From a virus (Duplodnaviria; Heunggongvirae; Uroviricota; Caudoviricetes): a stretch of DNA of 26,954 nt. The translations under genes were made by a program, and so were the position numbers. The stretch lies in the IMG/VR virus record IMGVR_UViG_3300005289_000054. The stretch is one strand, 5' to 3'. Below, in pieces: positions 6,692 to 26,620 of the stretch (positions are counted from its first letter, which is position 1; each line of letters starts with the position of its first letter). Below the pieces are notes generated by a model, which made no database searches, was not told the DNA's origin, and saw only the letters and a program-made list of their open reading frames with translations.

Positions 6692-8763
6692 CCTACAAGC
6701 TCCAGAACTGTTGCGTTACCCAAGAAGTCTAGTTCACCTCTTGCAGTTAACTTATTGTCTAAATAAATATTTATTGGTTTGGTTGCAGAAAGTACTTTGT
6801 CTAATGCTTTCTTAGTTAGATCACCACCATTTTCAGGCATCGCATTTGGTCTTCTTAGTAAAGGAGGAGCCTGATATTGTTGAGGAGGATTTCTTTGTTC
6901 AGGAGACATAAGGTTAGGTCTAACAATCTTAGTATTCCTAACATCACCAGTACCGCCAAAGTATTCACCACTAGACCAAGGATTGTTTCTATTCATGAAA
7001 GTATCAATAGGATTAGCAACCATATTCTTAGCATTGTAGAATGCTAATTTCATTTTCAATCCCAAGATATCAAACCAAAGACCTAAGCCTTTAATCTTTT
7101 CTCCCCAAACATCAATCCATGTTGTTTGACCTTGCATACCTTGGTTAACAGCTTTACCAACCTTCCAAAGAATACCTAGAATCGTAATCCACCAGAAGAA
7201 TCTCTTACCAATTGCAATAATGGCTCTCATTAAGCCACCAGATAGGAATGCTCTAAATGCTACCCATATACCTCTTAAGTTTTTTACATTCTTAATAAGA
7301 CTGACAATCAACTTTCCTTTGCGTAATAAAAGTAAACTTACTACACCAAGGATGATTGCTAATGCTCCGTTTCCATCTGTAGCCTCGTCAAGAAGTTTCT
7401 TTAATTCCTTCCATCCTGTAATTACAAATTTAATCCCAGAGCCAACATCATTTAATGCAAGAACAAGACTATTAAGACCTTCAAATAATCCTTTTAATGC
7501 GGTATCCAAACCACCTTGTAAGATGTTTTTAGATAGTGTATCGATGTTGTTCATTAGGCGTTGTTGAGATACAAGAGATGTATTTAGAGCCTTATCTAAT
7601 GCTCCATTCTTACGAGCCATATCTGAAGTAATCTTAGCTAATTCATCAGCTATTTCAGGTATTTTAACCTTACCAGCTTTCTGGAATTTATCGTAGTCAG
7701 TATCTTTAATACCATATGTTCTTACAGCAGCTTGTCTGAAGATTTCTCGTGATAAGCCACGCTCTGCCATCTGACCAACTTCTTCAGCCTCTACTTTACC
7801 TTTGGAAAGCATTTGACCTAAAGCACGATACACACCTTGTTGATCTTCCGCATTACTACCAAAGACTGTCATTAATTCACCAAGACCAGTAAATAGCTTC
7901 TGTGTCTTCTCTAATGACATTTTACCTTGAGCGGATTGGAGAACCTTAGCAAAACCCATGCCCATTTCTTTGGTGGATTGTCCTAAGCGATCAGATTCTT
8001 TTCTTACATACTCCATTGACTTAACAAAGTCAGCATTAGAGTCTGTAGCAGCAGTCATGATGTTTTCCATCTTCTGCATGTCACGACCACGAGTGATAAC
8101 TTCTTTTGCTGCAAAACCACCAGCAGCTAAACCACCGCCAATTGCTGTAGCGGGAGCCATTGACCTAAAGAAAGGAGCAATGCTACCAAGCCAAGGAGAT
8201 TCACCTCTACGACCTCCAAAGCCACTGAAAGGGATAACTGTTGTTCCACCTTGACGTGGAGCATTTCCTTGATTTCTTCCTGTGACTGTAGAAGTCTTTT
8301 GACTAATATTTACTTTAGCATTTACAGAAGCATTATTTCTCAGTTCTTTAATCTTTTCATTAGCGCCTTTTAGTAAATCTTTAGTTCGCTGTACTTGATC
8401 TCCATAAGCTTTCCAGCGTTGCTCACCATAAACTAGACTACCATGAATCTTACCTAGACTTTGAGTTGTTGTTTTTTGATTCTTTGTAATACTCAGGAAA
8501 GCTTTATCAACTTTCTCAACAGCATTTTTTAGATCAACATAAGTTGCAGATAATTTGTTATCTGACTTCTTGATCTTTAAATTACCATTAACTCTTACTA
8601 AAGCCCTATTCACTTGATTAAGAGAATCTGTAAGTACGCGAGCATTTCTTGCTAATAAGGCTGTATCAGCACGAGCTTCTTTTAATGCAGCTTTAAACTG
8701 TACCAAACCTGAAGTATCAATGTTGAAGCCTAATGTAGCAAACATTTTAGTTATTTGTTGCAT
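6688..8763 (-). CDS. Tape measure protein
   Basis: 691 aa helical protein with tape-measure signature (SMEYVRKESDRLG...VYRALGQMLSKGKVEAEEVGQMAERG) and hydrophobic C-terminal segments; follows the tail chaperones. Confidence 0.93.
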   Translation of the reverse strand: MQQITKMFATLGFNIDTSGLVQFKAALKEARADTALLARNARVLTDSLNQVNRALVRVNGNLKIKKSDNKLSATYVDLKNAVEKVDKAFLSITKNQKTTTQSLGKIHGSLVYGEQRWKAYGDQVQRTKDLLKGANEKIKELRNNASVNAKVNISQKTSTVTGRNQGNAPRQGGTTVIPFSGFGGRRGESPWLGSIAPFFRSMAPATAIGGGLAAGGFAAKEVITRGRDMQKMENIMTAATDSNADFVKSMEYVRKESDRLGQSTKEMGMGFAKVLQSAQGKMSLEKTQKLFTGLGELMTVFGSNAEDQQGVYRALGQMLSKGKVEAEEVGQMAERGLSREIFRQAAVRTYGIKDTDYDKFQKAGKVKIPEIADELAKITSDMARKNGALDKALNTSLVSQQRLMNNIDTLSKNILQGGLDTALKGLFEGLNSLVLALNDVGSGIKFVITGWKELKKLLDEATDGNGALAIILGVVSLLLLRKGKLIVSLIKNVKNLRGIWVAFRAFLSGGLMRAIIAIGKRFFWWITILGILWKVGKAVNQGMQGQTTWIDVWGEKIKGLGLWFDILGLKMKLAFYNAKNMVANPIDTFMNRNNPWSSGEYFGGTGDVRNTKIVRPNLMSPEQRNPPQQYQAPPLLRRPNAMPENGGDLTKKALDKVLSATKPINIYLDNKLTARGELDFLGNATVLELVG

Positions 8764-25977: not shown

Positions 25978-26091
25978 AATTTCAGGTGTTGATTAATGCT
26001 CGGCTCTGATGTAGCTCTCTGCGCTAACACACTGGATACCCTGAAGATATCTAACAGTGGGAGAATCCTGAAAACTCCCTTATACGAAATT

Positions 26092-26169: not shown

Positions 26170-26244
26170 TGGTAGTACCTGATAGTTTCGAACTATCGAC
26201 CTCAGAATTATCAGTTCTGCGTTCTACCCCTGAACTAAGGTACT
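26170..26244 (-). tRNA. tRNA-Ile (GAT)
   Basis: AGTACCT/AGGTACT-A-CCA; CAGAA-CTGATAA-TTCTG; GATAG-TTCGAAA-CTATC. Confidence 0.96.
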
Positions 26245-26250
26245 ATTGTT

Positions 26251-26465
26251 TGTGATTTTGAGTGGATCACATACCACATCCATTAAACCTATCTAGTTGT
26301 AAAACGTATCAGATGGTTTGGATAAATAAGGAGCTGCTGCTTACCAGTTAGTGAACAACTCCGATCTTAGAATAAGAATCACACTCAGTAGAGAAGGAGG
26401 AAACTAAAGAGTGTGGAGGAGAAACAACATTCAATGTTGCACACACCTATCATCAAGTGTGGTAA
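26251..26465 (-). ncRNA. Candidate structured non-coding RNA upstream of the tRNA array
   Basis: Seven consecutive hairpins found by eye. Several G.U pairs work only on the minus strand. No credible ORF in the interval. Confidence 0.55.
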
Positions 26466-26489
26466 TATTATTTTTATTATATTTCCTTA

Positions 26490-26518
26490 TTGTAATTAAG
26501 GATTCCTTTATGTATAAT
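26490..26518 (+). promoter_or_regulatory. Sigma70-like promoter, rightward (antisense to the local genes)
   Basis: TTGTAA-17 nt-TATAAT. Confidence 0.5.
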
Positions 26519-26559
26519 GACTTATTTGTATTTGTGAGTTCTTTGTCATTACAAGAGAT

Positions 26560-26588
26560 ATAATCCCATAAAATATAAGAATTGTCAA
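26560..26588 (-). promoter_or_regulatory. Sigma70-like promoter for the ncRNA/tRNA operon
   Basis: TTGACA-17 nt-GATTAT, with an extended -10 TG. Confidence 0.55.
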
Positions 26589-26605
26589 CAGGTATTTACA
26601 AACAG

Positions 26606-26620
26606 TAACATAATATGTTA
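26606..26620. promoter_or_regulatory. Perfect palindrome, possible operator
   Basis: TAACATA-A-TATGTTA, 17 nt upstream of the minus-strand -35 box. AT-rich, so it may be chance. Confidence 0.3.

Follow-up and report, generated by a model that had tools for sequence, protein, structure and literature searches.

What does the structured, non-coding DNA that lies directly ahead of a phage transfer RNA (tRNA) array do? The question is raised by a 26,954-nt stretch of viral DNA (hereafter the window; IMG/VR record IMGVR_UViG_3300005289_000054), which represents the terminal 27 kb of a contig of 90,951 bp assembled from a metagenome (ENA assembly ERZ27251527). At positions 26251-26465, a previous reading based on the letters alone (the sequence-only reading) had noticed a series of minus-strand hairpins, one of which displays CCUCCUU, a copy of the anti-Shine-Dalgarno (anti-SD) sequence of 16S ribosomal RNA (rRNA). 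The present analysis places these hairpins in a predicted untranslated leader RNA of ~308 nt, and we tentatively favor, at somewhat less than an even chance, the interpretation that this leader is a regulatory RNA, which would be released by RNase P and would pair through its CU-rich motifs with SD regions.

Promoter, Strand, and Boundaries of the Predicted Leader RNA

The leader is delimited by a promoter and by a tRNA gene of the same strand:

26560-26610, minus strand: leader promoter, with the -35 element TTGACA (26588-26583), a 17-nt spacer, and the TG-extended -10 element GATTAT (26565-26560)
26170-26244, minus strand: tRNA-Ile(GAU), called by ARAGORN and by the Rfam tRNA model (67.5 bits)

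The promoter is of the sigma70 type and is the top promoter-like site on the minus strand (10/12 with TG). Relatives for comparison were recovered through their terminase or neighboring proteins, and identities are given to the window: the terminase is 80% identical in L012, 72% in L013 and its duplicate L014, 60% in L015, and 61% in L017, and the Cys-rich open reading frame (ORF) is 74% identical in L018, a truncated contig that ends ~45 nt into the leader. The comparison of leaders leaves out L011, the closest relative (terminase 92%), and its companion contig L019, both of which break within the tRNA array, as well as L020, L021, and L022, which are too short. The promoter aligns with a single copy in L012, L013, L015, and L017, the pattern TGTAA-N5-TGTAA-N6/7-TTGAC occurring once per locus; these loci and the duplicate L014 have in common two TGTAA repeats, the -35 element, the 17-nt spacer, and the -10 hexamer, and a CAACAUAAAG-like start is common to L013, L015, and L017. 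L018 also matches the promoter part of the leader; the promoter is homologous in five relatives in all. This conserved promoter, present once per locus, fixes the transcribed strand as minus, as well as sequence alone allows.

The repeats located 5' of the -35 element read TGTTA (26610-26606) and TGTAA (26600-26596) in the window. The pair lies at 26610-26596 (minus strand) in the window, 507-533 in L012, 6671-6696 in L013, 7595-7620 in L015, and 2194-2219 in L017, and, with its two TGTAA units 5 nt apart, it resembles a putative regulator binding site.

From the position of the promoter, we infer a transcription start at ~26553, and the leader RNA is predicted to extend from there to 1 nt before tRNA-Ile. 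A terminator scan between 26552 and 26245 detected no intrinsic terminator, the tail after hairpin H3 (listed below) being AUUCUUAUUCU. Of the two hallmarks of an independent small RNA (sRNA) gene, the leader thus has its own promoter, as judged by sequence, and lacks a terminator at its 3' end. It lies on the same strand as tRNA-Ile with no terminator in between, which is the layout of a tRNA precursor of the T4 RNAC/RNAD type, and the two are probably co-transcribed. RNase P is established to cleave at the 5' end of tRNAs; because the leader adjoins tRNA-Ile, this enzyme would define the 3' end of the leader at 26245. Regarding the extent of ~215 nt assumed by the sequence-only reading, the region is structured and belongs to the minus strand, whereas the predicted transcript is longer, starting ~90 nt further upstream.

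The view that this RNA is non-coding and lies on the strand of the genes and tRNAs agrees with the polarity of the promoter conserved in relatives and with that of the flanking tRNAs. The only coding capacity in the leader is a 32-amino-acid frame with a GTG start and without an SD sequence, and a protein-coding interpretation was dropped for this reason. No tRNA or transfer-messenger RNA was called within 26250-26552 by ARAGORN or Rfam. The possibility of a captured 16S 3' end followed by a spacer and tRNA-Ile was also dropped because no rRNA model of Rfam matched.

Fold of the Leader and Exposure of the CU Motifs

The minus strand from 26461 to 26250 folds with a minimum free energy (MFE) of -56.2 kcal/mol (z -2.85; 3 of 200 shuffled sequences were equally stable), and the plus strand of the same region gives a z-score of -1.29. 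All of the stems that had been read by eye were recovered at their coordinates on the minus strand, in both the MFE and centroid structures of RNAfold. The predicted parts are as follows, in 5' to 3' order:

26465-26553, minus strand: 5' hairpin UGUAAUGAC/GUCAUUAUA (~26553-26513; predicted fold), followed by an A-rich sequence that contains AAGGAA words and lacks a start codon
26461-26442, minus strand: H1, CACACTT/AGGTGTG (MFE and centroid)
26439-26425, minus strand: H2, CAACAT/ATGTTG (MFE and centroid)
26416-26424, minus strand: CU motif 1, the linker TTTCTCCTC = UUUCUCCUC(C), directly 5' of H3 and unpaired in the MFE structure
26380-26415, minus strand: H3, CACACTC-TT-TAG-TTTCCTCCTTCT-CTA-CT-GAGTGTG, whose loop (26403-26392) is CU motif 2 (RNAfold)
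26377-26365, minus strand: H4, TCTTA/TAAGA (RNAfold)
26362-26330, minus strand: H5, GGAGTTGTT/AGCAGCTCC (RNAfold)
26278-26323, minus strand: H6, a long ATCC-AAACC-ATCT stem with the 14-16-nt loop GAUACGUUUUACAACU, identical in L012 (RNAfold)
26250-26276, minus strand: 3' terminal element, either the hairpin GUGAU/AUCAC (TGTGAT/ATCACA) or an H-type pseudoknot with GUGG/CCAC (RNAfold, RNAalifold)

The 12-nt loop UUUCCUCCUUCU (26403-26392), in which CCUCCUU had been noticed, is open in both the MFE and centroid structures, and is exposed as would be expected of the seed of an SD-targeting antisense sRNA. The second CU-rich motif, described as lying just upstream, corresponds to the linker at 26424-26416, which is single-stranded in the MFE structure. 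The CU motifs in the leader exceed what is expected by chance: only 34 words of the type CCTCC/CTCCT/TCCTC occur on the transcribed strand over the 27 kb of the window, a frequency that would place 0.39 of them in the 308-nt leader, in which three are present (Poisson P 0.007) and two lie within 46 nt of each other (P 0.0016).

In L012, the position equivalent to H1 and H2 is occupied by two small hairpins of a different kind; H4 has a similar short counterpart (UCUAG..UUAGA), and H5 is replaced by a larger branched domain. A-rich stretches bearing ACAAUAA(A/G) occur at the position matching that of the window in L012, L013, and L015.

Conservation of the CU Core among Relatives

The same order of elements, namely, the promoter, an A-rich stretch, a single-stranded CU word, and a hairpin with a CU-rich loop, was found in L012, L013/L014, L015, and L017. 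The cores compare as follows:

Window: linker UUUCUCCUCC; stem CACACUC.../...GAGUGUG; loop UUUCCUCCUUCU
L013: linker UUUUUCCUCCAA; stem CAUCACUCUCUUA/UAAGAGAGUGAUG; loop ...GACUCUCCUG
L015: linker UUUUCCUCCAA; stem CACCACUCUCU/GAGAGAGUGGUG, with a U-to-C change matched by A-to-G; loop ...UACUCUCCUG
L012: linker GCUCCUACC; stem CCUCUCUGUA.../...UACAGAGAGG; loop UCCUAACCUC
L017: linker CCCCUCCUC; stem CUCUUU/AAAGAG; loop AUAGUUCCUC

The stems differ in sequence among relatives and the loops remain CU-rich, the change between the stems of L013 and L015 being compensatory (CAUCAC/GUGAUG to CACCAC/GUGGUG). The conservation of the loop, on which the sequence-only reading had made its proposal depend, is therefore partial: the CU-richness, the CCUC/CUCC core, and the unpaired state are retained, and exact CCUCCUU is not, the equivalent words being UCCUAACCUC in L012, CUCUCCU in L013 and L015, and GUUCCUC in L017. 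Three additional ACUCCUCC-like words lie past tRNA-Arg in L017.

A tRNA begins 10-20 nt past the core in L015 and L017, and a tRNA-like element does so in L013. The presence of a tRNA or tRNA-like element close behind the core in these relatives makes the tie to tRNA processing a general one. In these short-form relatives, the core stands directly beside the tRNA, with no H6 domain between them.

An alignment of the five cores with MAFFT was not consistent with the structures and was set aside. When L013 and L015 were used to build a covariance model, its best foreign match was L012 (21.7 bits, E 0.26).

The tRNA-like element of L013 (~6868-6955) was not called by ARAGORN or Rfam. An acceptor stem, a T-arm (UUUGG-UUAGAAU-CCAAA), and a CCA end are recognizable by eye, and the "anticodon" loop GACUAGUUAA has 10 nt. 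It is retained in L037 (691-784) and in L008, the cultured Acinetobacter phage Mithridates (2397-2492; nhmmer E 3e-9), in which it is unannotated.

The 3' Domain

The part of the leader nearest to the tRNA is its most conserved part in the comparison with L012. In a global alignment, the domain formed by H6 and the terminal element has an identity of 84% (88% in the BLAST segment), whereas the rest of the leader reaches 53%, the capsid gene 70%, and the terminase gene 78%; a 29-mer within the H6 region is identical in the two sequences. One pair of the H6 stem has changed in a compensatory manner (A-U to C-G), and the stem also contains a single G-U substitution. Regarding the final hairpin TGTGAT/ATCACA proposed by the sequence-only reading, it is present in the fold, but a rival helix, GUGG/CCAC, is preferred by RNAalifold and has a compensatory G-C to A-U change in L012. 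The two helices are compatible with each other as an H-type pseudoknot, in which 22 of 22 pairs form in both sequences; a shuffle control for this domain gave 134/500, which means little with two sequences. The 3' domain may shield the 3' end that RNase P would generate.

An inverted TTGTAAA is present in the H6 loop, which is invariant between the window and L012. A search of the window for the complement of this loop gave no convincing partner.

CU-Loop Hairpins in Distant Terminase Relatives

A terminase profile search yielded 80 further metagenome loci with 30-50% identity. A simple hairpin scan covered 0.93 Mb of loci related through the terminase. In their non-coding DNA, the gene strand bore 58 hairpins with a CU-rich loop and the opposite strand bore 19; the density of such hairpins in the coding DNA of these loci was ~0.17 per kb. 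CCUCC-type words in non-coding DNA were biased toward the gene strand at individual loci (gene strand:opposite strand):

L063: 6:1
L043: 5:1
L053: 5:1
L005: 5:0
L049: 4:0
L003: 4:0
L051: 3:0

Most of the clustered words fall in predicted hairpin loops, such as UUUUCCUCCUUCU, GUCCUCUCCUUC, UCCUCCUCCU, UUUUCUCUCCUUCU, and AUUUCCUCUCCUAA; the folding of L005 gave no CU-loop hairpins despite its 5:0 bias. Arrays of 2-4 CU-loop hairpins were found in L043, L049, L051, L003, L053, and L063. The array of L049 closes with a canonical gene-strand terminator, the last hairpin of the L043 array is followed by GUAUUUUUAAG, and the array of L051 starts directly after tRNA-Arg, the last of a run of five tRNAs. 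When 12 regions were pooled, motif nucleotides had a mean unpaired probability of 0.855 against 0.429 for other pyrimidines, which is partly attributable to the purine-poor composition of these regions. These hairpins may represent a wider class of phage RNAs.

The hairpins lie, as arrays or single copies, at 4600-4800 in L043, 6190-6412 in L049, 2850-3010 in L051, 2756-2976 in L003, and 4088-4126 in L045.

Comparison with Known RNA Families and Systems

The sequence-only reading did not recognize a known family, and the Rfam searches agree with it: at the gathering score and at a permissive E-value, only tRNAs passed in the window, the best sub-threshold match in the region (Rfam 15) being Cyano-1 on the plus strand with an E-value of 6.3. 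Rfam scans of L003, L017, and L013 similarly passed nothing beyond tRNAs. A match of L017 2406-2490 to anti-hemB, a Burkholderia sRNA, was rejected at 24.9 bits against a gathering score of 49.5, and most likely reflects the common composition of CU hairpins.

In phage lambda, the constitutive sigma70 promoter PR' produces the short structured 6S RNA ahead of the lysis, terminase, and structural block, and the strong terminator tR' is overcome by Q. Unlike this leader, that of the window has no evident efficient terminator or antiterminator, and tRNAs come next.

The design is that of the cuckoo RNAs (alpha-r14), which include CcsR1-4 (RSs0680a-d) of Rhodobacter and NfeR1/SmelC397 of Sinorhizobium and combine an anti-SD-like loop word with freely varying stems (PMC4615179). 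They are chromosomal RNAs of Alphaproteobacteria, consist of 2-4 adjacent hairpins each with CCUCCUCCC in the loop, and are often co-transcribed with a neighboring gene and then processed (PMC4615179). The arrays of L043, L049, L051, and L003 are very similar to them in design, whereas the leader of the window has one loop and one linker, shorter and variable CU words, and a position at the head of a phage tRNA operon. The window RNA does not belong to this family: CCUCCUCCC is absent, the only CU loop is that of H3 with the second motif in the linker, and the cuckoo/alpha-r14 model of Rfam gave no match at the gathering score or at E-values up to 10.

CU-rich unpaired stretches also cover ribosome-binding sites in the double-hairpin RNAs of Burkholderia ("toxic small RNA," RF02278; ncS27) and the NmsRs of Neisseria (PMC5688073). 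Unlike the phage leader, each of these sRNAs has an independent gene on the chromosome that ends in its own terminator, and a sequence relation was not found. In staphylococcal RNAIII and RsaE, which the sequence-only reading had cited, UCCC or C-rich loop seeds start the pairing with SD regions (PMC4615179); they differ from the leader in their Gram-positive hosts, motif, and architecture, and show no homology to it.

RNAC and RNAD of phage T4 (species 1 and 2) are stable non-coding RNAs of the phage tRNA cluster that derive from the same precursor and whose function is still unknown (PMC9697503). Like these RNAs, the leader is encoded with phage tRNAs. A distant blastn search detected no similarity between the T4 RNAs and the leader. 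The T4 RNAs are located at the distal end of their cluster, not in a 5' leader. Among the papers searched, we found none that describes such a leader RNA of a phage tRNA operon. An sRNA with unpaired anti-SD-like motifs is of a known kind; its form as a phage tRNA-operon leader with a conserved 3' hairpin/pseudoknot is new.

Proposed Function and Alternatives

Bacterial sRNAs with CU- or C-rich unpaired motifs act by covering SD regions. In the interpretation that we tentatively prefer, an untranslated RNA of ~308 nt would be made from the conserved sigma70-type promoter ahead of the tRNA array and late genes, and RNase P, by cutting at the 5' end of tRNA-Ile, would free it from the tRNA precursor. 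H6 and the pseudoknot may then guard the new 3' end from exonucleases. The freed RNA would act in trans, its exposed CU motifs pairing with the purine-rich SD regions of host or phage mRNAs and thereby blocking or tuning the initiation of translation. If this is true, it would provide a function for the unexplained non-coding stretches of phage tRNA clusters, among which T4 RNAC and RNAD have been without one for decades, and an RNA-level route by which phages bias host translation; the conserved promoter, CU core, and 3' hairpin/pseudoknot would also serve as handles for annotating such RNAs in uncultured phages.

Several results weigh against this interpretation. The motifs are exposed and complementary to ribosome-binding sites, as the sequence-only reading had required for a blocking function, but a search of the window gave no target beyond an ordinary SD match: the best duplex between the motifs and the 33 start regions of the window had an energy of -14.3 kcal/mol, so that none of them surpasses the 1% tail obtained with random coding windows (-14.8 kcal/mol). 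Any CU-rich RNA pairs with any SD sequence, and complementarity alone is therefore not discriminating. The exact anti-SD word varies among relatives, in which only CU-richness and the CCUC/CUCC core are kept, and a comparison by eye of loop words with ribosome-binding words across relatives revealed no clear co-variation. The L013/L015 covariance model does not recover H3 of the window, and the homology of H3 with the hairpins of relatives, as suggested by synteny, the order of motifs, and the string CCUCCA..CACUCU..UUA, has weak statistical support. The full window-type leader, in its part from the core to the tRNA, was found only in L012, and covariation statistics are weak for that reason. 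MFE values do not tell the two strands apart in most of the regions folded. The silencing of host or defense mRNAs, which the sequence-only reading had put forward, is a matter of pure inference.

The main rival, which we consider unlikely, is a cis-acting leader modeled on lambda PR'-6S RNA-tR', in which a promoter-proximal hairpin with a U-rich tail would serve as a leaky or regulated terminator, a pause site, or an RNA-based antitermination element gating the read-through of a constitutive promoter into the tRNAs and the endolysin-terminase-portal-capsid block, the CU motifs being part of the signal or sites for a regulator. The unit heads a long co-directional late block, the conserved TGTAA repeats 5' of the -35 element resemble a regulator site, and the core hairpin is directly followed by UAUUUUUU in L015 and UAUUUUCU in L013, while L017 has a second hairpin with UUUUCUUU; furthermore, the 5' strand of the hairpin, CUCUUUA or CUCUCUUA, presumably resembles boxA. 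On the other hand, the tail after H3 is unconvincing as a U-tract in the window and L012, no terminator is called by the window scan, and the U-rich tail in the three relatives amounts to nothing more than the 10-20 nt that separate the core from a tRNA or tRNA-like element. An antiterminator gene was not identified, and a cis-acting leader leaves unexplained the CU words in the loops of many stems, including arrays that follow tRNAs (L051, L003) or have separate terminators (L049). A role as a protein decoy or scaffold, in which the CU loops and the A-rich 5' stretch titrate Hfq, ribosomal protein S1, Rho, or a phage factor, is improbable and less likely than a cis-acting leader. It would account for a short loop motif repeated 2 to 7 times per region, which is the layout of known protein sponges, for AAnAAnAA-like words in the A-rich stretch ahead of the motifs, and for the invariant H6 loop (14-16 nt), which suggests a specific ligand; however, the motif is the exact complement of ribosome-binding sites, making RNA pairing the simpler explanation, and we know of no Gammaproteobacteria protein that recognizes CCUCC-type loops.

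It is also less likely than a cis-acting leader, and quite improbable, that the region is a fast-evolving promoter-tRNA spacer without a function of its own, in which hairpins stabilize the precursor and the CU words are accidents of composition. The low identity to L012 of the 5' two thirds of the leader (53%), the lack of a link between H3 and the hairpins of relatives in the covariance model, and the moderate z-score of -2.85 are consistent with such a spacer, whereas the enrichment of CU motifs in the leader, the recurrence of the core architecture in five relatives, the 3-fold excess of CU-loop hairpins on the gene strand over 0.93 Mb, and a 3' domain more conserved than coding DNA argue against it. 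The plus-strand CsrA/RsmA sponge, which the sequence-only reading had suggested for the case of plus-strand expression, one of the findings that would refute its claim, is hardly credible. Its GGA words would occupy loops reading AGAAGGAGGAAA, as in CsrB/RsmZ, and sense and antisense MFEs are alike in most regions, but every polarity signal contradicts it: the promoter, the G-U pairs of H6, the terminators of L049 and L043, and the flanking tRNAs all point to the gene strand. No promoter-like site reads into 26251-26465 on the plus strand, the sites at 26490 and 26582 facing away; such a transcript would have to traverse antisense tRNAs, its fold has a z-score of only -1.29, and Rfam gives no match to CsrB, RsmY, or RsmZ.

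A broader form of the SD-pairing interpretation, which we regard as doubtful, extends it to the whole clade of ~80-105-kb phages with terminases 30-100% identical. These phages would encode RNAs tied to tRNA operons that copy the anti-SD sequence on one to several loops and reprogram translation in general. Produced in large amounts from a strong promoter and freed by tRNA processing, these RNAs would sequester the strong SD sites of host or early mRNAs, and ribosomes would be shifted to less SD-dependent phage messages, such as those for capsid and scaffold with their conserved weak AAGGAA.

Genomic Setting and Additional Observations

Every gene and tRNA of the window lies on the minus strand, including the terminase, a Mu-type portal, an S49 protease, an HK97-type capsid, and tail genes. 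On this strand, a 66-amino-acid Cys-rich ORF and a 42-amino-acid membrane ORF are located 5' of the leader; tRNA-Ile, tRNA-Asn, tRNA-Ser, two tRNA-like genes, small ORFs, more tRNAs, a cell-wall hydrolase, and the terminase follow 3' of it in this order, which places the leader at the start of a long block of genes in the same direction, from the tRNAs and Hydrolase_2 to the terminase, portal, protease, and capsid. The tRNA genes are 88-97% identical to those of Acinetobacter phages (AM24/YMC13 and other groups), which is the sole DNA similarity of the window to known phages, and the source is probably an uncultured phage with an Acinetobacter host.

A distant blastn search of the leader DNA against 50,697 phage records, T4 included, gave zero matches. 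Exact-pattern scans of IMG/VR with the H3 word, the H6 stem-loop 27-mer, the L013/L015 core, and the promoter pattern also gave none, and a 20-mer across the H6 loop had no exact match in JGI metagenomes or GTDB genomes; the clade appears to be essentially absent from the IMG/VR, JGI metagenome, and GTDB collections scanned. Among sequencing runs, none was found that holds the phage, the 5-6% of words in common with it being taken as tRNA words.

Within the tRNA array, two tRNA-like genes were not called by ARAGORN or Rfam. The first (25878-25793, minus strand) resembles tRNA-Ser(GCU) and has a long variable arm. The second (~25786-25716, minus strand) resembles tRNA-Trp(CCA), with what appears to be an acceptor stem of 8 bp and a UGCCA end; a homologue of the second stands directly 3' of the leader in L012 (about 929-999). 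A structured spacer of 114 nt without a tRNA or Rfam call separates tRNA-Asn and tRNA-Ser (25978-26091, minus strand). Long structured non-coding stretches of 600-700 nt, without an Rfam match, also occur inside the tRNA regions of L003 (1560-2160) and L017 (2830-3560). A conserved word, GUGUCCCACUACCUUUAAAUGnGGAUUGAAAA, is present in the non-coding DNA of L013 (~7150-7190), L017 (2859-2916), L019 (952-1005), and L037 (270-312); in L019 it lies just 5' of a gene start and may be a promoter or leader element.

Regarding ribosome-binding sites, the terminase gene (22738-21206) has an SD sequence of the GGAGG type, which is among the strongest sites in five of the five relatives compared. The capsid gene (17766-16687) and the 159-amino-acid gene that precedes it (18270-17791) have a weak AAGGAA site with long spacing, which is likewise kept in all five.

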